Origin: Nanobdellota archaeon
GTDB taxonomy: Archaea > Nanobdellota > Nanobdellia > Parvarchaeales > Parvarchaeaceae
NCBI GenBank assembly: GCA_021791655.1
Contig: JAJYWD010000003.1
Location: 166-64,165 of the forward strand
Direction: 5' to 3'
Length of the DNA: 64,000 nt
Shown: positions 7,475 to 48,879 of the stretch, piece after piece
How the letters are laid out: each line of letters starts with the position of its first letter
Position numbering within the stretch: position 1 is the first letter of the stretch
Notes under the pieces: generated by a model
Told to the model about the DNA's origin: nothing
The model's database searches: none
Seen by the model: the letters and a program-made list of their open reading frames with translations, nothing else
Made by a program: the position numbers and the translations under genes

Positions 7475-7584
7475 TGGGGTCGGCCGGATTTGAACCGACG
7501 TCAAGCGGTTTCTTCTAATCATTCTTTCGTCATTTTTCCAGTCTAGCTGGAGCCGCTTGTTCTGCCAGGTTAAACTACGACCCC
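7475..7584 (-). tRNA. tRNA-Trp (anticodon CCA) with a 37-nt intron in the anticodon loop; CCA not encoded
   Basis: The reverse complement is GGGGTCG TA GTTT..GAAC A AGCGG CTCCAG [37-nt intron] A CCGCT.. GTCGG TTCAAAT CCGGC CGACCCC A. The cloverleaf is complete once the intron is removed. Confidence 0.8.
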
Positions 7585-8815: not shown

Positions 8816-8933
8816 TCTTTCCTAAAATATTAATACCTTTCCGCTTCTCACTAGTCATGTCCCCGCACGCTGATAAAACATGTAAAAATTACGATAATTA
8901 ATACTGTACCATAGTAAAAATTAAAGTTTATAA

Positions 8934-10007
8934 ATGAATTGGCTCCTTAATATTAACATGGAAACTCTGACACTGGAGGAGCTACTAGAAGCGAAACAGG
9001 TACTTGACTTCCAGATAGGGCAGATTATAAAAACCGGCGGCGGCAATCTCCGGACTAAATATGGCGGGGCGTTGGGGGAGCTTGGTTACGGCATTGCTGA
9101 TTACAGGATAAGACTGGATTTCACGAACGGCAAAGGCGAAGAAGAGGCAACTTATTCGAAAATACTAACGCCGGATGGCGTTATGACTTCCGCGGAGTTC
9201 ATCTCTGCTATTAACGACTACAAAGACAAATCAAAGACAAACGGAAAATTGAGCGTAGTACACATAAAGTCAAACACGGACCTTTTCGAGAAGAAGTATT
9301 ACATCATAGATCCGAAGACAAGAAGAATAAGAAGTGAATACGATGTCAAGAGGAGTATACCGACCTTTGATGGCATTAGCGTACCAAAGAACCACGTCAT
9401 AGCTATAAACGGCTTGGATACTGATGAATCTAAGTTACCGGGATATACGGACTTGAAAGGCGAAACTACGCTAAAGAACGCAGAAATAAAAGAAGTATAC
9501 TACCCGGTGCCGATAAGGGGGATAAAATGTGATGTAGAATACAAAGGCACACTATTAACTCTCCAGCTTATAAAGCCGCTGGAAACCCCTTCATTTCTAC
9601 CACTTGCAGATAATTTTACAAGACGCATGGAGGAAGTAGCTCTTGTGGCACAAAGTGTGCCTAACATATCGGACGACCTAAATAAATCGGGATACAATAT
9701 AGAAAGTGAGGCAGGAGCGATGACAAAAGAGAATCTCGACCAAATGCTTCTCGGAAACTTATACAAAAGAAGGGACGAACTGAAGGCAGTTGCCAAAGAC
9801 TTGCTACTAAACAGCGGACTTTATTTAAGGAGTGGTAACAATATATTTACCAGCGGTGGAAAGAGTTCTATGAGCATAGACGACTTCAAGAACACTTTCC
9901 CAAGCCTGTTCTACAACGCCGACGGTAATGCAGACTCGTTCATCACGGACGAAGATTTAATGAAAATGAAGACCAGACAGAACGACCCGCTGAGCATGTA
10001 CAGCTAG
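8934..10007 (+). CDS. hypothetical protein of 357 aa with no recognisable motifs (ORFan-like)
   Basis: Long ORF with coding-like composition. No signal peptide or TM helix. Confidence 0.5.
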   Translation: MNWLLNINMETLTLEELLEAKQVLDFQIGQIIKTGGGNLRTKYGGALGELGYGIADYRIRLDFTNGKGEEEATYSKILTPDGVMTSAEFISAINDYKDKSKTNGKLSVVHIKSNTDLFEKKYYIIDPKTRRIRSEYDVKRSIPTFDGISVPKNHVIAINGLDTDESKLPGYTDLKGETTLKNAEIKEVYYPVPIRGIKCDVEYKGTLLTLQLIKPLETPSFLPLADNFTRRMEEVALVAQSVPNISDDLNKSGYNIESEAGAMTKENLDQMLLGNLYKRRDELKAVAKDLLLNSGLYLRSGNNIFTSGGKSSMSIDDFKNTFPSLFYNADGNADSFITDEDLMKMKTRQNDPLSMYS

Positions 10008-16200: not shown

Positions 16201-16292
16201 GGGCTCGTAGCTCAATTCGGTAGAGCATCTGGCTCTTAAATTAAGGATTTAGAGCCACCAGAGTGTTGCGGGTTCAAATCCCGTCGGGCCCA
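16201..16292 (+). tRNA. tRNA-Lys (anticodon CTT) with an 18-nt intron after position 37
   Basis: GGGCTCG TA GCTC AATTCGGTA GAGC A TCTGG CTCTTA [AATTAAGGATTTAGAGCC] A CCAGA GTGTT GCGGG TTCAAAT CCCGT CGGGCCC A. An extended helix GGCTCT.AAAT/ATTTAGAGCC spans the intron junctions. Confidence 0.75.
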
Positions 16293-28831: not shown

Positions 28832-29570
28832 AACCCCTTATTTTCTTTATCTCTTCTTCAAGCTTCTTGTCAAGCTCTGTGCTGTTATCGGTTCCGGAAA
28901 ACAGATCCACCCTGGCTGCCATGCTCGCTTTCGAAGCCAGAGCCCGCGCTACTCTGCCACGAATATTTTGCGGCGAGTCTTGTATCAGACTGTGTTTGAA
29001 AAGCAGCCCATACTTTGGAGATCTATCAGCCTTACGGCCGGAGAAAATTACCGTACTGCCTAGGATTTGCACTTTTGAAGACGGCATGAATGCAAGATTC
29101 TTAAGCCCCTTTGCTTCGCACAAAAGTCTTGCAGAAAGCATGCCGCCACAAATCGAATAAAGATTCTTATAAGTAACTTTGACTATATTGTCTAGCCTGC
29201 CCGCGATATCTATCCTAAAAGCGTCTAGTTCGCGCAGTCTTGCTACGCTGTCCGAAAGAAGTGACATGCCGTTAGCGTCAAGATCATACCCAAAACTTTG
29301 CGCTGAGATGAGCATTTTCTGGCTTACTTCATCTCGGCTAACCCCGCTCTTTAGCGAGGATACGAATTTATCCCTCTCTTTGAGCATCACAGCGGCCTCT
29401 GGGTAGTAAAGAAAAAACATGTCAAACGTAGCTTCAAATAACACATTTTCAGCGGCTTCACTCTCATCAATCAAATTTACCATGCGTCTTATCAAATCGT
29501 CTTTTGAAAGATTTTTCTTTATCGTTTCTTTAGCGCGAACTATGTATTCCTTATTGTCCATAAAAATCAA
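28806..29570 (-). CDS. nop5: Nop5/Nop56/58 C/D box sRNP protein, short form with a Nop domain
   Basis: Nop domain signature AQSFGYDLD...KGLKNLA..PSSKVQILG..GLLFKH.LIQ. Confidence 0.8.
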   Translation of the reverse strand: MIFMDNKEYIVRAKETIKKNLSKDDLIRRMVNLIDESEAAENVLFEATFDMFFLYYPEAAVMLKERDKFVSSLKSGVSRDEVSQKMLISAQSFGYDLDANGMSLLSDSVARLRELDAFRIDIAGRLDNIVKVTYKNLYSICGGMLSARLLCEAKGLKNLAFMPSSKVQILGSTVIFSGRKADRSPKYGLLFKHSLIQDSPQNIRGRVARALASKASMAARVDLFSGTDNSTELDKKLEEEIKKIRGYAIRKSGR

Positions 29571-30031
29571 CAGAAACCGGGAGAAAAGTACGCGTAGAAC
29601 GTCGTATTGGACTTAGCATCACCGAGTGAAGCGTTTGCACAGATGAACTGTGTCTGCGTAGTTACATTATATATTGTATAAGGGAAACTTCCGATGGATG
29701 AAGTGAAATTTATGGGTTCGTTCAGTGTTCCGGACCTATTGATACTGTTATAATCAACGTACCAAAAGAAGGCGGATGAGAATCTTACGCACGGCGACGA
29801 TGTACAATCCAGTGCTATGAACTTTGTCCCTACAGTAGAAAATGCGCCAGACCCGCCCGGTCCGTTCAAAAACCGGAATAGATTAGAAAACGCGGACCCT
29901 AGCCCTTTCACTATAAATGAATTAGTGGCTAAAAGAAATATTATAAGAACGACTGCGGCTATGACTATAAAGACTATGAGGGTAAGCCCCAAACCTATAG
30001 CTCCTTTCTTTGAACTGAATTCAGCGCGCAT
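29567..30031 (-). CDS. type IV pilin-like protein (class III signal peptide)
   Basis: SKKG-AIGLGLTLIVFIVIAAVVLII has a K-G cleavage site followed by a hydrophobic helix. The stop overlaps the nop5 start (ATGA). Confidence 0.55.
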   Translation of the reverse strand: MRAEFSSKKGAIGLGLTLIVFIVIAAVVLIIFLLATNSFIVKGLGSAFSNLFRFLNGPGGSGAFSTVGTKFIALDCTSSPCVRFSSAFFWYVDYNSINRSGTLNEPINFTSSIGSFPYTIYNVTTQTQFICANASLGDAKSNTTFYAYFSPGFC

Positions 30032-34426: not shown

Positions 34427-35563
34427 GTGAATATAAAGCTTTCGGTTTTATATCCGCGGATGTCAGCGAGGGAAAATATGGTGATGGACCTTTTGGTCGA
34501 AAGCGCCTTGAGAGCAAGTAAGGAAAATGCCGCCGATGACGTGCTCTTCAACCAAGCGCTAATAAAAGTTATAGGTGTAGGTGGTGGCGGAAACAACATG
34601 GCCAGCTGGCTTTACAAGAAGGGCGTTAAAGGCGCCGAAGTTGTAATAGCCAATACCGACCAGGTACAACTGAACGCAAGGAACGCAGATAAGAAAGTCC
34701 TTCTTGGCAGAGAAACCACGAGAGGACTCGGTGCGGGAGGGTTCCCAGAGAAGGGAAAACAAGCGGCCGAAGAATCCGCAAGGGAAATGAAGGATTCCCT
34801 GCGAGGTGCTGACTTGGTATTTATATGTGCTGGCTTGGGTGGCGGTACAGGTACCGGTGCAGCCCCAGTTGTTGCCCGACTTGCTAAGGAGACTGATGCT
34901 ATTGTTATAAGCACGGTGACTATGCCTTTCAAGACCGAAAGGAAGAGGGTGGAGAATGCTGAGCTGGGTCTTCAGGAGCTAAGAAGCTATTCTGACACTG
35001 TCATAGTGATAGACAACAATAGGCTTGTAAGCATGGCGGGGAATCTGCCGCTTGACCAGGCCTTCAATGTTGCAAATGAAGTGGTGGCAACCATGATAAA
35101 GGGCATCGTGGAAACGATATCGGACGCAGGAGCGTTGGTGCACCTAGACTTCGCAGACATAAAGGCCATTATGAACAAGGGCGGTGTGTCTGTGATAGGC
35201 ATAGGAGAAACGGACGCATCGGACTCCAGAGTTGTGGAAGTCGTGAGAAGAGCGCTTAACAACCCTCTTCTTGATGTGAGTTATAAGGGTGCAAAAGGCG
35301 CACTTATACACATAACCGGCGGACCCGACCTTACGCTGTCGGAAGTGAACCAGATAGGTGAGATTGCGACTCAGTCTCTCGACCCAGATGCAGTAGTCAT
35401 ATGGGGTGCAAAGATAGACGAAGCACTCACCGGGAAACTCCGTGTTATGACTATAATAACGGGAGTCAGCTCGCCGTACTTGTTGGGACCTGAAGACGCC
35501 AACAATGTGGCGCAGGCCAATAGGGCTATAAGCCAGGAACTCGGGATAGAAGTACTTAAATAG
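34427..35563 (+). CDS. ftsZ: cell division GTPase FtsZ
   Basis: Tubulin signature GLGGGTGTGAAPVVA and IGVGGGGNN. The tracked start is GTG; a nearby internal ATG is possible. Confidence 0.9.
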   Translation: MNIKLSVLYPRMSARENMVMDLLVESALRASKENAADDVLFNQALIKVIGVGGGGNNMASWLYKKGVKGAEVVIANTDQVQLNARNADKKVLLGRETTRGLGAGGFPEKGKQAAEESAREMKDSLRGADLVFICAGLGGGTGTGAAPVVARLAKETDAIVISTVTMPFKTERKRVENAELGLQELRSYSDTVIVIDNNRLVSMAGNLPLDQAFNVANEVVATMIKGIVETISDAGALVHLDFADIKAIMNKGGVSVIGIGETDASDSRVVEVVRRALNNPLLDVSYKGAKGALIHITGGPDLTLSEVNQIGEIATQSLDPDAVVIWGAKIDEALTGKLRVMTIITGVSSPYLLGPEDANNVAQANRAISQELGIEVLK

Positions 35564-35597: not shown

Positions 35598-35642
35598 TCC
35601 GCTTTATCGATTCCATCTTTCAAGAAATCCCTCCACTCCGAT

Positions 35643-35661
35643 GGGGGCTTCTAATGCCCCC
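35643..35661 (+). terminator. stem-loop GGGGGC-TTCTAAT-GCCCCC followed by ATTTTATATTT; likely ftsZ terminator
   Basis: Perfect 6-bp GC stem followed by a T-rich tract. The loop is identical to the upstream hairpin. Confidence 0.45.
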
Positions 35662-35798
35662 ATTTTATATTTATACATAACGAGAAAGGGTTCGCTATAC
35701 AGATATGCTCTGGCACTCAATTAGCGCTTCAATGCGCGCTTTATTGAGCATTGGCAATACAGAGTCCGCCACACAATAAAGTCATATTAAGAAGTCGC

Positions 35799-36173
35799 TT
35801 ACTGCTTCATTACGATGGATATCTGGTCGGAAGCTTTCTTCGCTTCCAGAAGGATTAGACCATAATTTACGTTTGGGTCTATCATTATTGTAAGAATCGC
35901 ATCCTCGCCCGCACGCACCGCTATAACACGTATGTCTTTTGATTCCGCGACCACCCTTTCTAATATGTTTTTAGCGCCTATCGCCTTTATGGCAGCCTCG
36001 GCAGCCCCGACCATGGATGCAAGCATAGCGGCGAAGGTATTAGCATCTATCTCGCCAGGTATCAAGGACATTATCGGTAATCCATCGGCAGATATAACTG
36101 CGGAGGCTTTTATGCCGCCAATAGTATTGAGATGTTCCAATACCGTACGCAGTGCTTCGGATTTTGTAGCCAT
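35799..36173 (-). CDS. Roadblock/LC7 (MglB-like) domain protein
   Basis: 124 aa with the Roadblock pattern ..GGIKASAVISADGLPI.... Confidence 0.65.
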   Translation of the reverse strand: MATKSEALRTVLEHLNTIGGIKASAVISADGLPIMSLIPGEIDANTFAAMLASMVGAAEAAIKAIGAKNILERVVAESKDIRVIAVRAGEDAILTIMIDPNVNYGLILLEAKKASDQISIVMKQ

Positions 36174-36192
36174 ACTTATCTTTTGACAATCC

Positions 36193-37416
36193 CTATTTAA
36201 ATAAGTCCTCCTCTATTACAAGCCTAAACAGGGTAGACAGCACTTCGTCCACTCCCGACTTTTTCAGCTTGGTAGGTTGGTTAGGATCTATTCTAGACAA
36301 ATCCTCAGCCACCGTAGCTGTGATTGGCACATCGTTGTTAAGGTGCAGCCTGTTCTTAATGTCGTCTATACTCAATGCACCTGGCAGATCCGCTTTGTTT
36401 GCGGCAATCACTATCGGCAGTCCGAACGTTTCGGTCTTTCTAAGCATTTCAATAGCGCGAGGAAACTGCTCTGGCTTGGTACAATCAACCACTAATACGA
36501 CACCTATGGAATCGCCACCAAGCAGCTTTAGCAGGGGGTCAAACCTCTCCTGCCCCGGCGTGCCAAACAAATCCGCTAAATAGCCTTTGAAGTCTACACT
36601 ACCGTGATCCAAGGCTATCGTGCCGCCAAGCTTATCGACGCTAACGGCGTTCTTTGACGCACTGTGTATGAAAGAGCTCTTACCCGCGTCTGTGGGTCCT
36701 GTAACGAGTATCTTCGGTATGGCTATCTTTATCCCCCCCGGCTTAACTACCTTGAACAGGGTAGAAGTGAAACTCTTTCCGGGCAGCCACTTGCATTTTA
36801 TCACACCAAAATACTGGCCGAATATGACTCTTTTCTCTATTCCTCTTATGACAACTTCTGCGTCCGTCAGGTTCATAAGTCCGGCACGTTCATTCTCTCC
36901 GTAACCCCAGTCTGTGAATAGGAGCGCTGCGGCCGTCTCACTCTTGTTTATTTTCTCCCTTAGCATGGCGATTATTGATATTGCGTAATCAAAGCCAAAT
37001 GTATCTACCACCAGTGAAAATGAATCAAAAAGCACCAGGGTATAACCCTTTTCAAGTTCGGCCCCGAGTGTTCTAAGGATCTCTTCTTTGTCATTAGGGT
37101 TTTTTATGACAATGACATTAGCGCTTCCAGACGACTCTATACCGGTCAAGTTGCTGTAGGCGTCGAGTACGAAGATATTCTTTGACACCGGAAAATGGAA
37201 CTCCTCCATCTCCTTGAAGTAAGCAGGCGGTGACGTTCTATTAAGGAAAATGAGAATCTTATTATCTTTTTCATTGTTAGCGACTATCTGGTAGCCGAAT
37301 GCTTCGTTCCCAACTGCGGGCGACGCAGAAAATATAACAGACTTGTGAGTCGGGAACCCGCCTAGCTCCCCATCCAATTTAGCAATCCCAAACAACGGGT
37401 CGACCATATCAGTCAT
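36193..37416 (-). CDS. fusion protein: N-terminal KaiC-like domain without a Walker A motif, then a C-terminal Ras/Arf-like small GTPase
   Basis: The C-terminal half has G1 GPTDAGKSS, G3 DLFGTPGQERF and G4 NKADL. The N-terminal ~230 aa resemble a KaiC/RecA fold but lack a P-loop. Confidence 0.65.
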   Translation of the reverse strand: MTDMVDPLFGIAKLDGELGGFPTHKSVIFSASPAVGNEAFGYQIVANNEKDNKILIFLNRTSPPAYFKEMEEFHFPVSKNIFVLDAYSNLTGIESSGSANVIVIKNPNDKEEILRTLGAELEKGYTLVLFDSFSLVVDTFGFDYAISIIAMLREKINKSETAAALLFTDWGYGENERAGLMNLTDAEVVIRGIEKRVIFGQYFGVIKCKWLPGKSFTSTLFKVVKPGGIKIAIPKILVTGPTDAGKSSFIHSASKNAVSVDKLGGTIALDHGSVDFKGYLADLFGTPGQERFDPLLKLLGGDSIGVVLVVDCTKPEQFPRAIEMLRKTETFGLPIVIAANKADLPGALSIDDIKNRLHLNNDVPITATVAEDLSRIDPNQPTKLKKSGVDEVLSTLFRLVIEEDLFK

Positions 37417-37441
37417 ATCGAATCACCATTAAGATTTAAAT

Positions 37442-38107
37442 CTATAACGGCGACCACGACAAAACCTCCTTTGCAGAGCCGGAGATAGTGAAAAAGCGTT
37501 TTCCGTCCTCCAGTTTTACGTTTATCACGCCGTCCATAAGGGATTTTATGGATTCTGTAACATCATTTGCATGCATATCGCTGTTCAATAAAAATAAAGA
37601 CGTAACCCCAGAGGTCTTTGCTCTTCCGCAAACGAACTGCAGGAACCTGAACATCGTTATTGTATTATTGTACAGGAGCAGCGTGGATAGCGAATCTAGG
37701 ACGTTTATAACGGATTTGCCGTCCTTTACAAAGTCATTGTTCATTGAAGACATTGCAACAGACAAGCCCGTAAGATCAACAGGGCCGTTCACAACCTTTG
37801 TATACTGATTATCGGACGATTCTGGACTTATAGTTCTACTGAAATCGTCGATTATCTTGAAGGACTGCCCCAAGTGCTGCGATATGTTCAGCCCGTGCGC
37901 TAGAAAGTCATTTAACAGTTCGGATGAACCTTTATTCACTGTTATGTACACGACTGCACGGCCCTCTTTCAGATTAGCGGCGGATAACCTATAAGCCAAT
38001 TCCTCTTTGCCACTCTCTCTGTTGCCGTTGAGCAGGTATGTCTTTAGAGGGCTTAGACCCCCGGTGAGCTTATCGAAGGATTCCGAGCCGGATGGTATGC
38101 TTACCAT
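37442..38107 (-). CDS. KaiC-like domain protein with a degenerate Walker A (GNRESGKE)
   Basis: IPSGSESFDKLTGGL..GNRESGKE..VYITVNK has KaiC-like architecture; the P-loop Thr/Ser is replaced by Glu. Confidence 0.55.
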   Translation of the reverse strand: MVSIPSGSESFDKLTGGLSPLKTYLLNGNRESGKEELAYRLSAANLKEGRAVVYITVNKGSSELLNDFLAHGLNISQHLGQSFKIIDDFSRTISPESSDNQYTKVVNGPVDLTGLSVAMSSMNNDFVKDGKSVINVLDSLSTLLLYNNTITMFRFLQFVCGRAKTSGVTSLFLLNSDMHANDVTESIKSLMDGVINVKLEDGKRFFTISGSAKEVLSWSPL

Positions 38108-38110
38108 ATC

Positions 38111-38725
38111 TCAAACAGAAAATTTCCTGGACTTTATTCCGAGCGGCGAATCGTCTACTTTCAAAGATAAATCTACGGTTACCTGATTTTCTGATTTTGA
38201 TATGTTTATCTCACCTGAAGCCGATCTTTCTATCACTATGTTCACAAAAGGAAACATATAATTTATGAGACTCCTGAAAAGGGTCTTCGGGTTGCCCCTC
38301 TTTAAGATTACAGACACGTTGTCCTCCATCTCCGGCATGTCCGTTATCTTGAAATAATCGGTGTCGATGGTCATACTCACTATCTTCTCGTGTGGAAGGT
38401 CGAGCAGATCACTTATTATGCTGTTCAGGTCCTCGTTCGGACCGAATCGCTTTGAAACCGACTTTTGCTGGCCCTTCTCTGTAAATGTGAAGACGAGATT
38501 AACTGACGTTATCATATACAAACGTAGTAGGGTGTTGTAAATTTCCCTTGTAAAAATCCTTAGGGGGTGCGTGGCTCTCATGTTTATCGCACCTTCCTTT
38601 GTCTGTTCTATGGAGAATTTTAGCTTTTTGTACGGGATCAAGGATACAATGCCGCGGGATGGCTGAGTCCCTTCATCATAAAATTTCTTTATTTCACCAA
38701 CTGTCTCGAAAACACTCACATCCAT
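38111..38725 (-). CDS. hypothetical protein of 204 aa, co-transcribed with the KaiC-like/GTPase genes (4-nt gap)
   Basis: ORF track only. Confidence 0.45.
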   Translation of the reverse strand: MDVSVFETVGEIKKFYDEGTQPSRGIVSLIPYKKLKFSIEQTKEGAINMRATHPLRIFTREIYNTLLRLYMITSVNLVFTFTEKGQQKSVSKRFGPNEDLNSIISDLLDLPHEKIVSMTIDTDYFKITDMPEMEDNVSVILKRGNPKTLFRSLINYMFPFVNIVIERSASGEINISKSENQVTVDLSLKVDDSPLGIKSRKFSV

Positions 38726-38792
38726 ATAGACATATTAAAACCTGAGCAAATTAATATCTTAATACGGTTAAATCTCTGCCTTCTTTAAAGAA

Positions 38793-39422
38793 TCACGAAC
38801 AGATGCCGGTGGGTGCTGAAGCCGGGTCATATAACGCGGTCTCATTGGGCGCTATGGTGAACGACTGAAGCGATAACGGTTTTATAACCGCAACATAACC
38901 GGCACATCCCGCACTCAGATTAAACCATACCGACGGCGAGCTGCCAGTGTACTCGTAGGTGTTTGGGGACGAACTGGATTCTCCAGAGTTGTACCACTGC
39001 AGATACTGAGAATTCGTGAATATCAAAAACTCGGTCCTGACGCTGGACATGTACTGCATGTGCATCTTGAATGTATCAGGTATAGTCAGGAAGACGTAAG
39101 AGTTCCCGCTTTCAGTGGCGTTAACGTTCCATATACTGAACAGAGGTTTACCGCCGGAAAACGAGAATTGCAGGGGCACCGCTTGACCGTTCGATATGGC
39201 TACCGAAGAGTTAGCAGTGTACGCCTTGCCCTTAACTATAACAAGATTTGCTATATTGGGATAGCAGGAAGGGCCGCTCGGCAGCAGTATCAGTGTGTCA
39301 TTTGAAGGGCAAAGATTGACAACAGCTATGTGGGTAGCGAAGGCGTAGAACACGCCGGCCGCCACCAGAATAAAGACTATGAACGAGAAAATAGAAAAGA
39401 CGGTAAACGCTCGCTTATTCAT
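38793..39422 (-). CDS. secreted or membrane-anchored hypothetical protein (signal anchor)
   Basis: N-terminal hydrophobic helix SIFSFIVFILVAAGVFYAF. No catalytic motifs. Confidence 0.45.
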   Translation of the reverse strand: MNKRAFTVFSIFSFIVFILVAAGVFYAFATHIAVVNLCPSNDTLILLPSGPSCYPNIANLVIVKGKAYTANSSVAISNGQAVPLQFSFSGGKPLFSIWNVNATESGNSYVFLTIPDTFKMHMQYMSSVRTEFLIFTNSQYLQWYNSGESSSSPNTYEYTGSSPSVWFNLSAGCAGYVAVIKPLSLQSFTIAPNETALYDPASAPTGICS

Positions 39423-39474
39423 ACATTATAAGTAACTTTACGGATTAATACATCGAAATGGCGACTAAAGTTCC

Positions 39475-39864
39475 TTAAGGCGCGGGGCAGTGTGTTGCAT
39501 CACCTGCGGTTCCCGGCGTCATGCTATAAGGTACTCCTACAGAACTACCGTTGTAATTGCACGTTACCGGTGCGTTGTATATGCCACCCGTCTGATTATA
39601 ACAATAGTATGTTGCCCCGCCCACTATAGTCGATGAGGAGCACCAATTGGATGGGTAGGTATTGGCTGACGCATCTGTAGCGCATGTGGAACTACACGTT
39701 CCGTAGAACGCCTGCAATGCCTGCTGGTTGGGGTTTGTAGCGCCGCCTATTCCTTTGAAACCCCCTAAAACGAAAGTAATAAATAGCACCAGAATCAATA
39801 AGCCTATCGCTATTAAAATTATAGTATTTATAGGAAGGCCTTGTGCTTTGTTCAATAGTCTCAT
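39475..39864 (-). CDS. small Cys-rich type IV pilin-like protein (class III signal peptide)
   Basis: NKA-QGLPINTIILIAIGLLILVLF is prepilin-like. The mature part has about 12 Cys residues. Confidence 0.5.
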   Translation of the reverse strand: MRLLNKAQGLPINTIILIAIGLLILVLFITFVLGGFKGIGGATNPNQQALQAFYGTCSSTCATDASANTYPSNWCSSSTIVGGATYYCYNQTGGIYNAPVTCNYNGSSVGVPYSMTPGTAGDATHCPAP

Positions 39865-40109
39865 TATGATATAAAAATACGTCCGTATTTAAAGATTTCT
39901 ATTATAAAGCGCAATCGGTTTGCACTGCGTGAATCCCGACCGGCTTTTGTCCTTATTTTCAGTTTCTTATACATTGATAAGTAGTGCGAAAGTCTACAAA
40001 AGCCCGATTCTAGCCCGAGATAAACATAACGGTACATAATTGCCAGCGGCAGGCATCTGCGCAGATATGTCAATTAAAAGTTTATATCTTCAAATTCGTT
40101 TCAATAGCT

Positions 40110-40922: not shown

Positions 40923-41711
40923 TTACTTAGCACGCACTATAACGTCCATCTTCTCGTTGAACTTTAGGCACTTTAGAAGAAGACCGTCCACCTCCGAGCC
41001 CTTTATATCAACTTTCTCGTTGTGTATAAGACGCCTACCTAGGGAAAAGATCTCGTGGAAAGTTGCAATATCACTCGTGTCTATAAGTCCTTTCTTGCTC
41101 AACGGCTCGAGCATATCAGAAATCGCTTCCGGGGAGGGGGGCACATCACCATTGTGCATTATAGCTGCCTGTGCAGAATTAACGACCGCCCAGTATATGT
41201 CTATCACAGATCCGGCAAGACGCAACTTAACAGAGTCGGAGTAGAGCTGGCTCCTCGTCAAAGCTGCATAAACAGATTCCTCGGTCGGTTTTATCTCCCC
41301 TTTGTTGAGCAGCACTTGCAGAGGTTCAAAGTACCCAGTGTCTATGAGGGCCACGCCGTATTTAAGGACGTTCACCGAGACTGGATCCGCCGCCAGCACG
41401 CCACGCCAGAAAGCCGTCAATGTAACGAAGTTTATGTGCAATTTTACGGATATTTCCCTCTTGTTAAGGTTTTCGACGTCGCTATAAAAGGGACCCAAAA
41501 ACTTGTCATCCAACACGTTCAGAACGTCGTCCATCACTACCATTACGTCCACGTCGCTCTTGTCCGTTTCCTTGCCTTTGCTAAAAGAGCCGAAAAGGAT
41601 TACCGTCTTCACAATTTTCGGATACATCCCGAAAAGATCTCTTGCGAACTTGTATGCGGCATCGTATCCGACCAGTTTAAGTTTTCCTTCTTCTCCAACG
41701 TCCATATTCAC
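40923..41711 (-). CDS. nucleotidyltransferase-domain protein (minimal NTase fused to a helical substrate-binding, HEPN-like domain)
   Basis: LFGSFSKGKETDKSDVDVMVV matches the Pol beta-type NTase GS..DxD motif. Confidence 0.55.
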   Translation of the reverse strand: MNMDVGEEGKLKLVGYDAAYKFARDLFGMYPKIVKTVILFGSFSKGKETDKSDVDVMVVMDDVLNVLDDKFLGPFYSDVENLNKREISVKLHINFVTLTAFWRGVLAADPVSVNVLKYGVALIDTGYFEPLQVLLNKGEIKPTEESVYAALTRSQLYSDSVKLRLAGSVIDIYWAVVNSAQAAIMHNGDVPPSPEAISDMLEPLSKKGLIDTSDIATFHEIFSLGRRLIHNEKVDIKGSEVDGLLLKCLKFNEKMDVIVRAK

Positions 41712-43375
41712 ACCATCGGCGTACTTGAAAACGAGCCGCCGCCCTCGTGGTTCATGTACCCTCCCCCTAAAACGGGGGAAAGACCAGAAAATCCGCCGTA
41801 TCCAGCGGAAAAGATGTCATTCTTCAATCCTAGATTCGAGTAAGTGGAGTAATCGCCCATCAACGAAGAATATGGATGCGCAGCGTAGGCTGGCATGCTT
41901 ACATATGGCACATCGTTGTATATAGGTTCGCCCATGTACTGTAATGACTCTGCCATGCCGCCAGTTATGCCGCCGGCGCCGCCGAATACCTCCATTATAG
42001 CCGGTGCCTCGACCCCGGCCTTCTTCAGTGCTTCATATACCTCTTTTACTGGGGCGTTACCCTCGCCAAGTGGAAGATGAGCATCGCTATCGCCCATGTT
42101 GTCATGAAGGTGGTAACGCTTCAAATAATCCTTAGCGCCCATCGCCATATTTAGTATATCTTGGTCATTGTACGGTTTGCCAGTTTCAGGATTCGTATAT
42201 GACTTGAAAATATTCACGTGACCGACGTCTAGGTTTATGCCGATAACCTTCCTGCTAAGGTCTTCTGCGTCTGATTTGCTCATGCCCTTCTTTGAAGCGG
42301 CTTCTACGAACAGCTGTCTAGCCATCTTGACTGCCTCTGCGGTCTCTTTTGGATTGCTTAGCGACATGTCGGGAGTCATGGTGTTCTCCACCAGAATCAT
42401 AGGTTTTGTCTTGGTCTCGAACGCGGAATACATGGCCGCGTCCTTTATGCCCGCCGCCGCCAGCGAGGGCGCTTTCTTGTCGAATGAGACGTATCTCTTG
42501 TCAATCATCGTTGATTCTATTTCGAGCCGCTTATCCGCCGTGTCCAGGTCCTTTATGAACTTATTCAACTCCTCGGTCTGCTTGGTCAGCTTTTCCGCTT
42601 CTTTGGCATCGCCCTGCAGATTGGCCCTCATCAGCTCCTTAACGATCTCGAATCTCTGTGCTTCCAGATTGCTCTTCTGTATCTCATACGATGTGCGCTG
42701 CCGGCTTACCTCAGAGCTCTGCTGCACCTTGAAGAATTCGAGTTGCGCCTCCGGGGATAGCCTTATCCTATTCTCACTGAGCTTCTGGAAGCCATTTGGT
42801 ATCTTATTGAGTTTGTCCACCACTTCCTTCCCGTAAAGATCCTCAAACTGCTTGGCGGACACGTTCATCTCTTCCCCCTGCAGCGGCATCACTTTTTTTT
42901 CCTCTTCGTCGTACGCCCACATCATCTTCGATTTGTCGGGGTTCCCAAAATTGTCATATGAAGCATGAAATATTATCGGCATGTTCTCTTTTTTCATACC
43001 AGTAGAAACATCGTCCGCAAAAGTAAGCGCCTCTTTCACTTCTCTCTCCATCTGGTGCTGGAACTGTCCGTCCATACTACCGGATTTCGGGTTTATCCCG
43101 GCGAAATTTATAGACCATGGCGCGTGCACGCTCAAGTCCACGTTCGTACTGTCAGCCAGATTGCTTATTGCCTGCCTTTCCGTCCTGCCTATCCTTTCAG
43201 CCGAGCCCATCTTGCCAGTGTGCCCGTATAGGCTGGCCAGGTTTATCTCCACCATTCTTGCGCCGCTCCTCAGAACACTTGCGAAATTCTCCAGCTGATT
43301 CTGCTCGTCCACCGAAACTCCTAGCGATGCCTGTTTGAACGAGTCCCCGAAATTCTTCAATGTATAGTCCGTCAT
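41708..43375 (-). CDS. xylose-isomerase-like TIM barrel protein with a ~180 aa coiled-coil insertion and a Gly/Tyr-rich C-terminal tail
   Basis: EINLASLYGH..VHAP at the N-terminus and GINLDVGHVN..HLHDN.GDSDAHLPLGEGN at the C-terminus are typical of this barrel family. The segment between them is charged and heptad-like. Confidence 0.45.
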   Translation of the reverse strand: MTDYTLKNFGDSFKQASLGVSVDEQNQLENFASVLRSGARMVEINLASLYGHTGKMGSAERIGRTERQAISNLADSTNVDLSVHAPWSINFAGINPKSGSMDGQFQHQMEREVKEALTFADDVSTGMKKENMPIIFHASYDNFGNPDKSKMMWAYDEEEKKVMPLQGEEMNVSAKQFEDLYGKEVVDKLNKIPNGFQKLSENRIRLSPEAQLEFFKVQQSSEVSRQRTSYEIQKSNLEAQRFEIVKELMRANLQGDAKEAEKLTKQTEELNKFIKDLDTADKRLEIESTMIDKRYVSFDKKAPSLAAAGIKDAAMYSAFETKTKPMILVENTMTPDMSLSNPKETAEAVKMARQLFVEAASKKGMSKSDAEDLSRKVIGINLDVGHVNIFKSYTNPETGKPYNDQDILNMAMGAKDYLKRYHLHDNMGDSDAHLPLGEGNAPVKEVYEALKKAGVEAPAIMEVFGGAGGITGGMAESLQYMGEPIYNDVPYVSMPAYAAHPYSSLMGDYSTYSNLGLKNDIFSAGYGGFSGLSPVLGGGYMNHEGGGSFSSTPMV

Positions 43376-43480: not shown

Positions 43481-45004
43481 TCAACCTCGTCTGAGCAGCC
43501 TCAAAAGCCAGTCTTGACGCGAGAACTTGAGGAAGAATACTATGTCTCTCCTGTGCAGCACGCCCATGAAGAACGTTATCAGAAGATAGAAGAAAAACAC
43601 CATAATCAGGATAAACGGCAATAGAATAAGCGAGGTAAATATCTCAAGCAGAAAATAGAGTATCCCACTCATTATGGCGCCGGCAACGACCATCTTTAAA
43701 ATTTCCTTATACGGGATCACTATTTTTATGTATCTTTTAGAGAAAAATATGTTAACCAATAAATTCGATATGTTGACCCCGAAAAGGGCGAGAGCTCCTC
43801 CCGTAGAAAGTAGATTCGGGACCGCCAGGGCTACTATGGTTATGCTCACTACGGCCGATATAACGGCTGAATAGAGATTGTATTTCTGCTTCCCTATCGC
43901 ACCCAATACTATGGTTATCGGCGCGAAAATCGCTACAATCAGCGATGAGACGGTTATTATTATGAATGGCGTCTGTGCTCCAAGGAAAACTCCGCGATAC
44001 AACAGCCTTATCAACGGGTTTATGGCGACGATCGAGCCTAAAGCCAACGGGATGGTTATCAGAGCCGCATACCTCATAAGAGTGTACTGTAACCTGTAGA
44101 ACTTGTCGAGCTCACCGCGTTCAAAGAATTTTGTGGCAGTAGCAAAAAATCCGCTTCCGATGGCCATCGCGGGTGCAGCAATGAAAGAGCCCATTATGTG
44201 ACCGACCCTGTAAAAGCCTACGAACTCGGTGTTCGGTGCGACCACACCCAAAAACAATATAATAAAGTAGTTGTACAATAGACCTATCAGAGACATACCA
44301 TAGGTGAAATGTCCGTATTTCTTTAGATGACTCCTTCCCCTGCGGTCCGGCTCCTTTTTGTGCTGTATCGGCTTTAGATAGTGATATATGATGTATAAAG
44401 AGAATATCGCAGCCCCCACGAAGGATAAATCGTAGAAACCGACCAGGCCGACCAGTCCGAACCCGTAGAAAAGAGCCACGATCTGTCCTACCCCTATAAC
44501 CTCGAATATTACGTTGGATACGAAAGAGTACTTTATTTTCTGTAAACCAGTAAGGATGGGATAGGCGAAGTTGTTTGTAACGGAAAAGAACACCACGCCT
44601 ACGGCGAGTATCTGTATAAGATATGAGAGTTGCGGCGCGTGAAATAACACAGCCAGCGGGCCTGATAAAGCAAACAGCGCCACAGAAGACACAGTAGAAG
44701 CGAGTAAAAGCACCCAAAAGTAGTGCTCAAGCAGCCACTTTATGACATCCTTTTTATTATTAGCTCTGTATTTTGAGACTCCGTACTGCAACATGCCTCC
44801 AAAGCCAAGGCTTGCGATTGTGGTTACGGACGACCAGATTATTATCGAAAGGGAGTACACGCCATACAACGATGCACCGAGGAACCTCCCTATGAATACA
44901 CTCAGTATGAAAGACATTACAACCGAAAGGAGGGTGACCAAAAACGAATAGACGCCATTTGAAGCCACATTAATATTTTCCAGTTCGTCATCTATATCAT
45001 CCAT
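43481..45004 (-). CDS. MOP-superfamily polysaccharide/oligosaccharide flippase (Wzx/MATE-like)
   Basis: About 12-14 TM helices with MOP-like organisation. Lies next to aglB. Confidence 0.55.
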   Translation of the reverse strand: MDDIDDELENINVASNGVYSFLVTLLSVVMSFILSVFIGRFLGASLYGVYSLSIIIWSSVTTIASLGFGGMLQYGVSKYRANNKKDVIKWLLEHYFWVLLLASTVSSVALFALSGPLAVLFHAPQLSYLIQILAVGVVFFSVTNNFAYPILTGLQKIKYSFVSNVIFEVIGVGQIVALFYGFGLVGLVGFYDLSFVGAAIFSLYIIYHYLKPIQHKKEPDRRGRSHLKKYGHFTYGMSLIGLLYNYFIILFLGVVAPNTEFVGFYRVGHIMGSFIAAPAMAIGSGFFATATKFFERGELDKFYRLQYTLMRYAALITIPLALGSIVAINPLIRLLYRGVFLGAQTPFIIITVSSLIVAIFAPITIVLGAIGKQKYNLYSAVISAVVSITIVALAVPNLLSTGGALALFGVNISNLLVNIFFSKRYIKIVIPYKEILKMVVAGAIMSGILYFLLEIFTSLILLPFILIMVFFFYLLITFFMGVLHRRDIVFFLKFSRQDWLLRLLRRG

Positions 45005-45714: not shown

Positions 45715-48700
45715 TCAGCTTATCGATGAGTTCCTTATTAGGCCGTAGTTGGCAACGTCGGAGAAGAAAACCGATGGAAGATAACTTAGATTGTCACAGT
45801 AATTCTGTGCGGAGGGGTCAACGCTGCACTGTCCCGTTAGCATGTATTTGCTCAGCTGAGTATAATTTATTTCATAAACATTCACATTCGTAAGCACTTG
45901 ATTATTCACGCTCAGGAAAGAGTTTACTGGCAAGCCGTCCGAAAACACGAGCTTGAATCCCGGCACACTTTCATTGAGAAGGTAAAGTTTCGTGAATAGA
46001 CTGTCCAGCGCTTTCTGCGGTATAAACAGCACAGACGGTGTATTGCCGTACTGTGACATGCTTATCTGGGCAGGGATGTATCCGGATCCATTGTACGGCC
46101 CGCCTATGCGAAGGGTCTGGCTGTCGGAAGCGTTAAGCTGCATCACTCCCCCAGGTATGCCTTTGCTGTCAACTAATGTACATCCAGTCCCGTAATTGCA
46201 GGAGTATTCCATCGGGATTGGGTTTGTCTGGCTGCCGCTTAGCGTATTGTAAACTATGCCGTATGTGCCGCCCTCTGTGAACGCCTTAGTTACGTTAGAA
46301 TAGTTGAAAGGAATCAAAACCTCTGCAAGATAGTTGTCTGCTGCGTCCCACATTGTGCCCCCATAAGAGAAATTGGCCTCAAGGGGCGCAATGCCACCCG
46401 ACTGACCGCCGAACACTGCCAGGTACTGGTAGCTCTTGTTACCTAGATTTATTGAATTCTGGGCAGGCTGTCCTTCGGTCATTGGTGTATATTGCGTATA
46501 ATTTAGCGCTATCGTCGAGATCGCCGAGAATTTCTCTACCTCGCTGCCACTTATCACGGCGTAATTCGGCCTATGGATGAAATTAAGGTATGTAGAGTAA
46601 ACGTAAGGCGAAGTCGCTGTGAAGAAGTACTTCGCTATCATGGACTGATAGCCATAGGCATTGCTACCGTCTGCAACAGACGTACGATTAGCAATCGCTT
46701 CTATCCAGTAACCATAATCCCACCAGGAGATTACGGATGAATTTTGAGGCGTGTGATATTTCACCCATAGCATGGTCGGCCCCCACAGCGCAAGCCCGCT
46801 GCCGCTCTGCGACGCCGTAGCATATGATGCAGACAAACTTGCATAGAGATCCACCACTACGAACACCACCGCTACTAAGACTAGCGCGGCTACAAGCGCA
46901 CTTCGCCACGCATCGTCTTTGGTAAATGCCTTTGAAATGCTGATTCCTTCCTTCACAAACAGGGTTATAACGATGGGAATGAGTATGACCGCAATGAAGT
47001 CAGTGGGCTGCAGAAGTCTGTTTTCCACGTTTGAAAGCGCCAGAGTTATTATCAGGAAAAGGAAAAGTACGAGATATAGAGGTGCTTTCTTGTTCTCCTC
47101 GAACTTGTCGAAGAGAAAACCTATCGCAAGAAATATCGCTATAGCAACTATGCCATACTTGTAAAAGTCCGTTCCCTGATTTATGAAAGTGAAGACAGCA
47201 GAGAATATCATCGAGAAGAAGGTCATTAGTATCACCAATGTAAGTACGCGCTTGAAAGTCCCTTTATTCCAGTCCAGCGCAATTCTCCCGAGCGGCAAGA
47301 GCGACAAAAGTATAAAAACAACCAAGAAGCTATACGAAGCTGCGCCGGGCGTGTACTGCCCGCCGAAAACCAGTGCTAAAAACGGCAATGCACCCAGATA
47401 GAATATGTACCAATTCTTGAATCTCTTAGTCAATAAGTATAGTGCAACAGCCGAGCCTATTATGAATAGCAAGAAATTGATACCGATTGTATCAGCAGCG
47501 CCGCACACACCACTCAGGAAATTATACTCGCACACTCTCTGTGCTAGGGTCATCTGGCCAAACTCTGCAACCGTTAGAGACACAACATTGACACTTGCAC
47601 TGCCTATGCCCAACGGATTCGCAAATTCCGACACCAACTCCTTAGACAAAGACAAGAAGTGAGACAGCCCGGTAAGTAACAACAGGAAAACCGCTACGAG
47701 TGTACTATATATTATGACCGATGCACCCTCGTTTATCAGGGGAATCCTAAGCCTACGCTTATTGCCGTCATATACGAAAACTTTGAACAATACCGCCAGA
47801 TATGCCAAAAGCATGGGGATATAGGTAGCAGAGAGCAGAGAGGATAGACTGAAGTCGCCGAACGACGCTTCAAACGGAATCCACAGAGCGAAGGGTAGGA
47901 AGGGAAGCAGGTCCTTTCTTTCGTAGTATCCGAACAGAATAAGACCCAAAAACACTAAAGGCACCAACACGAGAAGATACTTAGTATAACCGCTGGTGAT
48001 TATAGAAAATCCCATGGCCAATGCCAGCATGAAACCGTACATCATCTTCGTTTTGAATCTGTCACTTTTTAGTATTTTTATCAGGAAATACACGGCTAAA
48101 ACTATAAACAAAAAGCCCATGGCAGTCTTTGTAGAAAAACCGGCGGTGCTCCTGCTAAGGAACGTAGCGAAAGCGGGGAAGATAAAAGCGCCTATCGAAG
48201 CTGCGTAATAATCGTCGAACAACTCCAGGATTATGAAGAACAGTAGGATTGTAGTGAGTATGGTAACTATCGCCGGATAAATCATAAACCATGTCATTGG
48301 CGTCAGCCCGCTGAACACGGGCTGCAGAAGCCTGAACACGTACGCACCGAAAAAGGAAATCAAAAGAGGCTGACTTCTGGGCACCAAGCCTATCGGCAGA
48401 TACTGCATATGATTTACCGCCGGCACATTTCCCGTGTTTATGACGTTTATCATCTGCGTATAAAAGAAATACGGGTCAAGCCCGTTTAGAGAGCCGCCCA
48501 TTCCAAGGAAACCGTTCCCTATTAGCGGAGACCCGCCAAGTGCCGGCAGGCTTGACAAACGCACGTATGTGCCCAGATATAGCGCAATGATCAACAGGAT
48601 ATAGAACAGTACGCGTTTTTCTATTAGAAACCAATACATCCACGAGAAGAACTTCCCGAATATGTCAAAATTTACGTTGACTTCTATCTCGGTTATGCTT

Positions 48701-48879
48701 TTTCGCTTTTCTTCCGCTTCCTCGCGCTCCTTTAGCTGAGAAATCTCGCTCTTGACAGCAGTAAGCTCTTTCTCTTCCTTCTTCAGAGAGGCTTCTTCTT
48801 TTCTTATCTCCGATTCCAGCACTTTCTCTTTGTCTCTTATCTTCTCCTCCTCTTTCTTTATAGGGCTGTCTTCGGACAT
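45715..48879 (-). CDS. aglB: archaeal oligosaccharyltransferase AglB (STT3 homolog) with a ~65 aa charged coiled-coil N-terminal extension
   Basis: WWDYGYWIE motif, 13 or more TM helices, large C-terminal periplasmic domain. Confidence 0.85.
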   Translation of the reverse strand: MSEDSPIKKEEEKIRDKEKVLESEIRKEEASLKKEEKELTAVKSEISQLKEREEAEEKRKSITEIEVNVNFDIFGKFFSWMYWFLIEKRVLFYILLIIALYLGTYVRLSSLPALGGSPLIGNGFLGMGGSLNGLDPYFFYTQMINVINTGNVPAVNHMQYLPIGLVPRSQPLLISFFGAYVFRLLQPVFSGLTPMTWFMIYPAIVTILTTILLFFIILELFDDYYAASIGAFIFPAFATFLSRSTAGFSTKTAMGFLFIVLAVYFLIKILKSDRFKTKMMYGFMLALAMGFSIITSGYTKYLLVLVPLVFLGLILFGYYERKDLLPFLPFALWIPFEASFGDFSLSSLLSATYIPMLLAYLAVLFKVFVYDGNKRRLRIPLINEGASVIIYSTLVAVFLLLLTGLSHFLSLSKELVSEFANPLGIGSASVNVVSLTVAEFGQMTLAQRVCEYNFLSGVCGAADTIGINFLLFIIGSAVALYLLTKRFKNWYIFYLGALPFLALVFGGQYTPGAASYSFLVVFILLSLLPLGRIALDWNKGTFKRVLTLVILMTFFSMIFSAVFTFINQGTDFYKYGIVAIAIFLAIGFLFDKFEENKKAPLYLVLFLFLIITLALSNVENRLLQPTDFIAVILIPIVITLFVKEGISISKAFTKDDAWRSALVAALVLVAVVFVVVDLYASLSASYATASQSGSGLALWGPTMLWVKYHTPQNSSVISWWDYGYWIEAIANRTSVADGSNAYGYQSMIAKYFFTATSPYVYSTYLNFIHRPNYAVISGSEVEKFSAISTIALNYTQYTPMTEGQPAQNSINLGNKSYQYLAVFGGQSGGIAPLEANFSYGGTMWDAADNYLAEVLIPFNYSNVTKAFTEGGTYGIVYNTLSGSQTNPIPMEYSCNYGTGCTLVDSKGIPGGVMQLNASDSQTLRIGGPYNGSGYIPAQISMSQYGNTPSVLFIPQKALDSLFTKLYLLNESVPGFKLVFSDGLPVNSFLSVNNQVLTNVNVYEINYTQLSKYMLTGQCSVDPSAQNYCDNLSYLPSVFFSDVANYGLIRNSSIS

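Follow-up and report, generated by a model that had tools for sequence, protein, structure and literature searches.

What does a KaiC-like domain fused to a small GTPase do when its gene lies in a row with a Roadblock/LC7 gene on one side and genes for surface proteins, one of them pilin-like, on the other? This question is raised by six minus-strand open reading frames (ORFs) at positions 35799–39864 of a 64,000-nucleotide stretch of contig JAJYWD010000003.1 of a Nanobdellota archaeon (GenBank assembly GCA_021791655.1), which we refer to as the window. An earlier note, made from the letters of the sequence, had described the six as one co-directional cluster and suggested that it controls a type IV pilus-like structure. 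The coordinates that it gave are identical to those in the ORF list of the window, and its gaps of 4 to 68 nt agree within one base with the intergenic gaps of 19, 25, 3, 67, and 52 nt that we counted in the order from Roadblock to pilin. All six have homologues in the same order at nine related loci, which shows that they are real genes and not chance ORFs. Of the relatives that bear names, Candidatus Parvarchaeota, Parvarchaeum (ARMAN-4, ARMAN-5), and Acidifodinimicrobium come closest, with 58–65% identity, which assigns the window to a DPANN archaeon of the Parvarchaeota (ARMAN). The genes flanking the cluster in the window are ordinary housekeeping genes. As described below, the conserved unit is not the six-gene cluster. 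It is a trio consisting of a stand-alone inactivated KaiC-like protein (iKaiC), an iKaiC::GTPase fusion, and a Roadblock/LC7 protein, and we lean toward reading it as a conserved archaeal three-protein signaling cassette whose local output would be surface control.

The C-terminal half of the fusion had been proposed to be a Ras/Arf-like small GTPase, and profile searches leave this assignment in place. Residues 233–377 match Arf (1.7e-9, 37.8 bits, cutoff 22.3) and Ras (6e-7, 29.6 bits, cutoff 21.6) in Pfam, and TIGR00231 small_GTP (1.8e-13, 50.6 bits, cutoff 42.5) in NCBIfam. Arf and Ras are matched by 22/22 relatives of the fusion, and a family profile of these 22 sequences matches Arl3 and Arf over positions 236–362, its best PDB matches being Arf and Arl proteins. 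All motifs quoted in the earlier note are present, and the set from G1 to G5 is intact in the window protein: GPTDAGKS at 240–247 (G1), Thr266 (G2), DLFGTPGQ at 282–289 (DLFGTPGQERFDP; G3), NKAD at 340–343 (G4), and Ala370 (G5). Motif conservation was assessed on 80 non-redundant fusions and 64 stand-alone partners. In the fusions these motifs are essentially invariant, with G1 as GPxxAGK[ST], G3 as D-x-F-G-T-P-G-Q-E-R-F-D-P, G4 as NKxD, and the G2 and G5 residues as in the window. The invariant Gly285 aligns with the Asp of the DxxGQ motif of Arf1, and an invariant Asp lies three residues upstream; the replacement of Asp by Gly appears to be a deviation of the MglA kind and not the loss of the motif. 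The switch II residue Gln289 is conserved, and a switch I Arg (Arg262), four residues before Thr266, is found in 73 of the 80 proteins. The GTPase domain, from which no nucleotide-binding or catalytic motif is missing (the switch II Gln is among those kept), is predicted to be a working GTP/GDP switch.

For the N-terminal half, the window sequence alone gives weak KaiC matches (0.0096–0.05 in Pfam and NCBIfam). However, over positions 3–233 the profile of the 22 relatives matches PH0284 (1e-22), cyanobacterial KaiC (7e-22), and also PH0186 and SSO2452; PH0284, PH0186, and SSO2452 are solved structures of KaiC-like proteins with a single domain from archaea. Pfam KaiC (PF06745) is matched by 18/22 relatives, with a best value of 5.5e-28, and the comparison of the domain with the stand-alone iKaiC by hhalign (probability 99.9%, E 2e-33) identifies the two as paralogues. 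Despite the weak matches of the window protein, this family-level evidence settles the KaiC-like identity of the domain. It also lacks a P-loop, as had been noticed: the corresponding position reads P-G-V-E-G-E in the family and SPAVGNE in the window protein. None of the 80 members has Lys or Ser/Thr there, and just 24/80 have the Walker B Asp. We predict that this domain is catalytically dead.

The partner protein of 221 amino acids (aa) matches KaiC (PF06745, 3.6e-13, 49.9 bits, cutoff 26.6) and DUF7504 (5.7e-13, 50.2 bits, cutoff 27) in Pfam; its NCBIfam matches to FlaH, ArlH, and KaiC are weak and all far under cutoff. Its Walker A motif, GNRESGKE at residues 28–35, had been called degenerate, which holds for the Ser/Thr position, occupied by Glu, but not for the Gly-Lys pair, which is kept. 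Asp138 is kept at the Walker B position, and the positions that we take, from an alignment, to be those of the catalytic Glu pair of KaiC carry the non-acidic residues N-K (TVNK). Among the stand-alone partners the consensus P-loop is GPPxSGK[E/S/D], with the Lys in 59/64, and the Walker B residue is Asn in 32/64 and Asp in 28/64. The designation pseudo-ATPase used in the earlier note therefore seems reasonable as to hydrolysis.

The third member of the trio belongs, as proposed, to the Roadblock/LC7 family (Robl_LC7, PF03259: 1.4e-14, 54 bits, cutoff 23, covering positions 4–89 of the 91 in the profile). Its PDB matches include the Roadblock/LC7 chains 9jue_D (2e-11) and 7f8m_A (1e-8) as well as MglB (~4e-4), and its match to LAMTOR2 is weak and not significant (E 0.4–0.9). 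Against the MglB equivalog of NCBIfam, NF052242, it scores 23.1 bits for a cutoff of 200. The 124-aa protein is thus a Roadblock/LC7 protein and not an MglB orthologue. By analogy with known systems, it is predicted to regulate the GTPase domain as a GAP (GTPase-activating protein), a GEF (guanine nucleotide exchange factor), or a platform. The PDB entry 9jue, which has six chains, is named just "Roadblock/LC7 domain protein" and may belong to an archaeal complex.

In a census that scanned one genome per species, at least 574 genomes were found to encode a relative of the fusion. They come from Parvarchaeota, Woesearchaeota/Nanoarchaeia, Altiarchaeota, Archaeoglobaceae, Hydrothermarchaeales, Methanosarcinales (ANME-2, Methanoperedens), Methanocellales, Halobacteria, Thermoplasmata, and Methanobacteria. 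We counted linkage at 80 non-redundant loci from DPANN plus several euryarchaeal orders. A co-directional Roadblock gene adjoins the fusion gene at 71/80 of them and a co-directional stand-alone iKaiC gene at 65/80; both are adjacent to it at 62/80 and both lie on the same strand within 5 kb at 68/80. In contrast, homologues of the pilin, of the anchored protein, and of the 204-aa protein, at positions -4, -3, and -2, occur among these loci just in Parvarchaeota, where the six-gene order is kept at the nine loci mentioned above. In a sister lineage (Rehaiarchaeum-like, 47% identity), the order is the 204-aa homologue, iKaiC, fusion, Roadblock, and a gene for a small membrane protein. The conserved unit is the trio iKaiC, iKaiC::GTPase, and Roadblock. 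For these three genes, linkage in other genomes, whose absence the earlier note would have taken as a refutation, is upheld across many archaeal phyla, and so is its idea of an uncharacterized NTPase switch; the six genes as a conserved unit are not.

Outside this core, the neighborhoods of the trio vary with the lineage. Genes for YhbY, ribosomal protein S19e, and a dsDNA-binding protein come after the trio, and on its strand, at 14–18 loci, most of which belong to Methanosarcinales and Methanoperedens. A V4R protein lies beside the trio in Archaeoglobaceae and others, and PAS-HTH proteins lie beside it at eleven loci. Sensors and regulators are also found within the arrays: TrmB, fusion, two small ORFs, V4R, Roadblock, PAS, and iKaiC at locus L004; TrmB, fusion, dCache, Roadblock, MASE3, dCache/HAMP, Roadblock, and FIST at L089; and fusion, PAS, Roadblock, and iKaiC, with TrmB nearby, at L092. 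At L090, an AIR-synthase-like protein is followed by the fusion, Roadblock, iKaiC, and KaiC. Locus L091 (Joint Genome Institute [JGI] metagenome contig Ga0637471_0000045, 6593–15182) carries Roadblock and, right after it, the fusion relative P0090 at the head of a gas-vesicle cluster with GvpA (8817–9047), GvpO, GvpL/F, and ParA-like ATPases. It recalls GvpD, the KaiC-like regulator of haloarchaeal gas vesicles.

Type IV pilus genes, complete or partial, accompany the fusion at three loci. In Nanoarchaeota (L088), three class III ORFs, T2SSE, and two T2SSF genes come first; the fusion is next, then a gene for a small membrane protein, and then Roadblock and HAMP sensors. In Nanoarchaeia (L017), the fusion follows T2SSE, a bona fide KaiC (1.7e-63), and five ORFs with pilin-like N-termini, of which 2/5 pass the motif scan. 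In Methanobacteriaceae (L085), iKaiC, Roadblock, and the fusion come directly after a pilin-like ORF of the canonical KGQ type and another possible one. Most loci of the family nevertheless have sensors, TrmB regulators, or housekeeping genes as neighbors, not pili. The suggestion that the switch controls a pilus-like structure stands in part: it is not a property of the fusion family, and it is plausible for this genome. When the core stays constant while sensors and outputs are exchanged around it, the pattern is that of a modular signaling cassette. We also observed that, in Nanoarchaeota/Woesearchaeota loci, a small ORF of 106–110 aa replaces Roadblock as the gene after the fusion (L004:7214–7537, L016:9200–9526, L017:9209–9529, L088:7229–7561). 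Those of L016, L017, and L088 encode hydrophobic membrane proteins, Roadblock lies further downstream wherever the contig runs on (L004, L016, and L088), and the small membrane protein may be a lineage-specific tether for the switch.

Within the window, the signals between the genes suggest several transcription units (table 1). The TATA-like motif before the pilin gene stands at the same distance in 8/8 Parvarchaeota loci and would be the putative promoter of a leaderless or short-leader transcript. A T-rich box is conserved at about -33..-25 before the anchored-protein gene, and TTTAAAT[AT] is found at the same distance before Roadblock in nine Parvarchaeota loci, where it may be a separate promoter. 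The TTTAAAT heptamer is rare: counting both strands, the 64-kb window contains 19 copies, among them one at -29 of the pilin, one at -24 of the fusion, and one at -28 of the Roadblock gene. A single six-gene operon, which the earlier note expected to see confirmed, seems unlikely because conserved TATA-like boxes precede four of the six genes. The only consistently overlapping or near-overlapping pair is that of the 204-aa and iKaiC genes: the stop codon of the former lies 3 nt from the start of the latter in the window, and the gap is -8 to +3 nt in 8/8 loci. From this near-overlap, the conserved boxes, and the order in the sister lineage, the region is read as one unit of four cytoplasmic genes, with two surface-protein genes before it that are promoted individually. 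A sigma-70 promoter scan was uninformative, the organism being an archaeon. The fixed box-to-start spacing of ~22–33 nt at L001, L007–L013, and in the window leaves no room for a leader and suggests that leaderless transcription is common in the genomes concerned.

Table 1. Genes, domains, and promoter-like elements of the cluster in the window
Feature	Position	Strand	Basis
Roadblock/LC7 protein, 124 aa	35799–36173	-	ORF list and Pfam
iKaiC::GTPase fusion, 407 aa	36193–37416	-	ORF list and profiles
Fusion, C-terminal small GTPase domain, residues ~229–407 plus stop	36193–36732	-	Arf, Ras, TIGR00231
Fusion, N-terminal inactivated KaiC/RecA-like domain, residues 1 to ~228	36733–37416	-	Family profile, hhalign
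Stand-alone single-domain KaiC-like protein (iKaiC), 221 aa	37442–38107	-	Pfam KaiC and DUF7504
Cytoplasmic protein, 204 aa, fold unassigned; first gene of the coupled unit	38111–38725	-	ORF list
Signal-anchored, Cys-containing surface protein, 209 aa	38793–39422	-	ORF list; homologues in Parvarchaeota only
Type IV pilin-like protein, 129 aa	39475–39864	-	N-terminal class III-type signal
TATA-box-like element TTTAAATA, 22–29 nt before the pilin ATG	39886–39893	-	Sequence; conserved in 8/8 Parvarchaeota loci
TTTAAAT element overlapping the fusion gene's end, 22–28 nt before the Roadblock ATG	36195–36201	-	Conserved spacing

The 129-aa protein begins with MRLLNKA|QGLPINTIILIAIGLLILVLFITFVLGGF, a class III-type signal also written NKA|QGLPINTIILIAIGLLILVLF, and the cleavage motif and the hydrophobic helix of about 20 residues are both there, in line with the class III signal peptide given in the earlier note. 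Twenty homologues, whose identity to the window protein is otherwise 39–56%, share the N-terminus QGLPINTIILIA.GLL.L without variation. The hydrophobic helix is constrained more strongly than average, which a filament-forming pilin would lead one to expect and a simple anchor would not. In the same 20 homologues C57, C75, and C88 are invariant and C126 and N105-G106 nearly so; the family thus combines four conserved Cys with a near-invariant NGS/T sequon in a small alpha+beta ectodomain. An AF2 model (predicted local distance difference test score, 65) places a hydrophobic helix at 12–34, a helix at 45–66, and a small sheet. Some homologues are labeled "UPF0333 family" or "FlaG/FlaF family" by JGI. 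No curated pilin or class III signal family of Pfam or NCBIfam and no solved fold gives a significant match, so that "pilin-like" is the proper strength for the claim. The 56 homologues found all come from Parvarchaeota or Rehaiarchaeum.

The pilin-like protein is probably glycosylated. A flippase-like protein of the Polysacc_synt/MatE type (43481–45004, minus strand) and a 1054-aa protein with a marginal match to the STT3/AglB core (45715–48879, minus strand; 22.2 bits, cutoff 23) are encoded upstream, 4–9 kb from the pilin gene. Given the near-invariant sequon and these nearby genes, the surface proteins may be linked to N-glycosylation. Six kilobases from the cluster, a 154-aa ORF (29567–30031, minus strand) without a match in Pfam starts with MRAEFSSKKG|AIGLGLTLIVFIVIAAVVLII, which resembles a class III signal, and may thus be another gene of the pilin-like kind.

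The 209-aa protein has an N-terminal hydrophobic anchor, in keeping with its earlier description as signal-anchored, and no conserved prepilin cleavage motif. It matches no Pfam or NCBIfam family, and its homologues are found at position -3 of the nine Parvarchaeota loci only. We considered it as a second pilin and rejected this, the [KR][GA] motif being present in the window protein and one other homologue and not conserved. The 204-aa protein likewise matches no family in Pfam or NCBIfam, and its own family has 10 representatives among 1.84 billion proteins.

How might the trio work? KaiC-family proteins form rings, and the N-terminal domain of the fusion and the stand-alone iKaiC are paralogues; we therefore propose that the two dead KaiC-like modules could form an oligomerization scaffold comparable to these rings. 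Such a scaffold would present several GTPase domains and bind partners according to their nucleotide state. If MglB-MglA and Ragulator-Rag are a guide, Roadblock would dock as a dimer on the switch regions of the GTPase and set its rate of hydrolysis or exchange. Inputs and outputs would be supplied by the variable neighbors, that is, PAS, dCache, HAMP, V4R, and FIST sensors, TrmB, type IV pilus operons, or a gas-vesicle cluster. In Parvarchaeota, the 204-aa protein would be a lineage-specific fourth cytoplasmic subunit whose gene is translationally coupled to that of iKaiC. Locally, the output would be the control of a pilus-like or surface structure, on circumstantial grounds. Surface control is the most plausible local output because two surface-protein genes, each with a putative promoter of its own, lie immediately upstream of the cassette; the adjacent surface apparatus is the likeliest output in this genome, at a probability that we would place at even at the most, and perhaps well below it. 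A broader version would make the trio a distinct, ancient, and undescribed archaeal signal-transduction system, in which a ring of dead KaiC domains displays several MglA/Arf-like GTPases tuned by Roadblock dimers. It would be a plug-in through which PAS/Cache/HAMP/V4R sensors act on TrmB-type transcription factors and on organelles of the envelope such as type IV pili and gas vesicles, and Parvarchaeota would have gained a private fourth subunit and use the system to govern a host-contact pilus or surface apparatus. This version we hold only tentatively.

Several observations weigh against a surface-controlling cassette of this design. Past the pilin gene, the conserved Parvarchaeota block goes on upstream with genes for DUF211, VIT1, a nucleotidyltransferase of the Pol-beta type, and a TIM-barrel protein, and since these genes are unrelated, adjacency alone says little. 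The sister-lineage locus is without pilins and has TFIIS, sugar-kinase, and dehydrogenase genes upstream. The pilin and anchored-protein genes have conserved boxes of their own, ~22–33 nt before their starts, as do the 204-aa and Roadblock genes, at eight to nine Parvarchaeota loci. It is the N-terminal motif that makes the 129-aa protein pilin-like, and the window ORFs that were tested include no PilB/ArlI-type ATPase, no TadC, and no prepilin peptidase. The Methanosarcinales arrangement, with the trio before YhbY, S19e, and the dsDNA-binding protein, fits neutral synteny or a different role. As for the mechanism, the stand-alone iKaiC, keeping its Gly-Lys, might still bind nucleotide; the scaffold role of the dead domains is conjectural, and the physical interactions among the three proteins are predictions.

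The closest competitor is the dedicated operon of the earlier note, in which all six genes are expressed together and the NTPase switch controls the assembly, polarity, or expression of a filament made from the adjacent pilin. Six co-directional genes with short gaps, in an order kept at nine Parvarchaeota loci, are what it would lead one to expect, and the type IV pilus loci L088, L017, and L085 enclose the fusion or end with it. KaiC-family and Roadblock genes are moreover reported to be frequent in archaeal type IV pilus loci (PMC4858521), and MglA/MglB controls the polarity of type IV pili in Myxococcus (PMC9481161). This operon is nonetheless at odds with the four conserved promoter-like boxes, with surface-protein genes restricted to Parvarchaeota beside a pan-archaeal trio, and with a sister lineage that has the four cytoplasmic genes without the pilins. 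Most loci of the family are flanked by sensors, TrmB regulators, or housekeeping genes, and the window ORFs tested yielded no pilus assembly genes: a further 30 ORFs spread over the 64 kb, scanned with Pfam for pilus machinery, gave only housekeeping proteins together with the STT3-like and flippase-like ones. We regard a dedicated six-gene pilus operon as rather unlikely.

At the other extreme, the pilin neighborhood may be neutral synteny, the trio and the 204-aa protein having no part in surface structures of this organism and serving instead some core process of the cytoplasm, for instance transcription, division, or the status of ribosomes or translation. The same unrelated upstream genes of the Parvarchaeota block would fit, as would the YhbY, S19e, and dsDNA-binding protein genes after the trio at 14–18 loci, the TrmB-family gene directly before the fusion in L004 and L089 and nearby in L092, and, in the window, a convergent ftsZ 235 nt away. 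However, the housekeeping neighbors are limited to one or two orders, and the pilus loci in three other lineages and the gas-vesicle cluster point to envelope or organelle outputs in some archaea. The ftsZ adjacency is not kept in the closest relatives, which have the threonyl-tRNA synthetase gene (ThrRS) instead, and a functional link to ftsZ was set aside on this ground. Neutral synteny throughout is in our opinion improbable. It is more improbable by far that the KaiC-like parts are active, with the stand-alone protein binding and slowly hydrolyzing ATP or autophosphorylating as KaiC does, so that an ATP-driven timer or oscillator would have the GTPase as its output. The Walker A Gly-Lys of 59/64 partners, followed by an acidic or Ser residue, Asp138, and the above-cutoff Pfam KaiC match speak for such a timer. 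Against it stand the P-loop without Lys in all 80 fusions, the Walker B Asn of half of the partners, the non-acidic TVNK of the window protein, the KaiC and ArlH equivalog scores far under cutoff in NCBIfam, and the loci examined, in which no KaiB-like gene was seen. The three-protein signaling cassette remains the reading that we prefer.

Compared with known systems, the cassette has familiar pieces in a different arrangement. The conservon of Streptomyces (CvnA-D) comprises a histidine-kinase-like sensor, a Roadblock protein, a DUF742 protein, and a small GTPase. It is without KaiC-like components, and its likeness to the cassette would be one of operon logic, namely a sensor (membrane or PAS/HAMP-type), Roadblock, and GTPase together (compare L088, L089, and L092), and not of orthology. 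Prokaryotic operons combining Roadblock, GTPase, and sensor genes have been noted (PMC4316618). In MglA/MglB of Myxococcus xanthus and Thermus thermophilus, as here, a gene for a small Ras-like GTPase lies beside a Roadblock/LC7 gene, and the MglB Roadblock dimer activates MglA by positioning the catalytic Arg and Gln of MglA itself (PMC3199381). The DxxGQ Asp is replaced in both GTPases, by Thr in MglA (PMC3199381) and by Gly285 in the fusion; the switch II Gln is conserved in both, and a switch I Arg is present, immediately before the G2 Thr in MglA but four residues before it in the fusion. MglA is a single-domain protein with a TxxGQ G3 motif (PMC3199381), whereas the fusion has two domains, GTPGQ in G3, and a second KaiC-like protein as partner. 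Its GTPase domain finds its best matches in Arf/Arl and not in MglA, and no MglA-specific match was obtained in the Pfam and NCBIfam scans. Finally, MglA/MglB is bacterial and regulates type IV pilus-dependent motility, whereas the fusion system is archaeal and mostly unlinked to pili.

Similarly, the KaiC-like hubs described in archaea are single-domain KaiC/RecA-like proteins, some of them inactivated (iKaiC), that occur together with sensor and output domains of varying kinds (PMC5847659). KaiC-family ATPases recur in archaeal type IV pilus and archaellum loci and the Roadblock family arCOG02603 in type IV pilus loci (PMC4858521), and the KaiC-like CirA represses archaellum genes in Haloferax (PMC10983859). 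The cassette differs from ArlH/FlaH, CirA, and GvpD in that activity would come from the fused GTPase and in that the constant partner is Roadblock, not KaiB, HTH, or REC. Roadblock proteins are platforms for Rag GTPases (PMC3747258), and in Rag/Ragulator (LAMTOR) and in Asgard archaea the Roadblock fold serves as platform, GEF, or GAP for small GTPases (PMC3747258, PMC10933270). There, a Roadblock domain is fused to the GTPase, whereas in the cassette Roadblock is encoded by a separate gene and a KaiC-like domain is fused instead. In the accessible literature, a scope outside which Makarova, Galperin and Koonin 2017 (mBio) falls, we found no published description of a KaiC-GTPase fusion, and among the entries listed in the accessible portion of the supplementary tables of the 2016 type IV pilus census there are none from ARMAN. 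Databases name the fusion proteins simply "GTP-binding protein". The pieces and the general logic are already known, and catalogs of comparative genomics probably contain the family; as a whole, the cassette is an uncharacterized, widespread, and modular GTPase signaling system.

Some further features of the window were recorded. A strong GC-rich hairpin, GATGGGGGC-TTCTAAT-GCCCCCATT, followed by a T-rich tail (35640–35664, plus strand), lies between the convergent ftsZ (ending at 35563) and Roadblock (ending at 35799) genes and is terminator-like for ftsZ, possibly in both directions. Upstream of the cluster lies the gene of a 555-aa protein (41708–43375, minus strand) that is conserved at this place in Parvarchaeota. 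In the window protein the central part bears a long insert of charged residues and the C-terminal tail is rich in Gly, Ser, and Tyr; the L001 orthologue carries a xylose-isomerase-like TIM barrel (AP_endonuc_2). Two tRNA matches, one of 110 nt at 7475–7584 (minus strand; Rfam, not called by ARAGORN) and one of 92 nt at 16201–16292 (plus strand; ARAGORN, with a four-base anticodon left undetermined), are probably intron-containing archaeal tRNA genes.

Pairs of small GTPases and Roadblock proteins on the one hand, and KaiC-like hubs on the other, are the two candidate native signaling systems of archaea, and both have barely been studied experimentally. The fusion joins both in one polypeptide, and hundreds of species, among them methanogens, ANME, and DPANN archaea, have kept it together with its partners. 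The protein set is small and well defined, so that the GTPase cycle, the effect of Roadblock, and the oligomeric state are testable in vitro, and its natural wiring to sensors, pilus operons, and a gas-vesicle cluster hints at roles in vivo. DPANN surface filaments, for example those of ARMAN, are thought to mediate attachment to the host. A regulator encoded beside a conserved and probably glycosylated pilin-like protein is a concrete lead for how DPANN archaea attach to their hosts.

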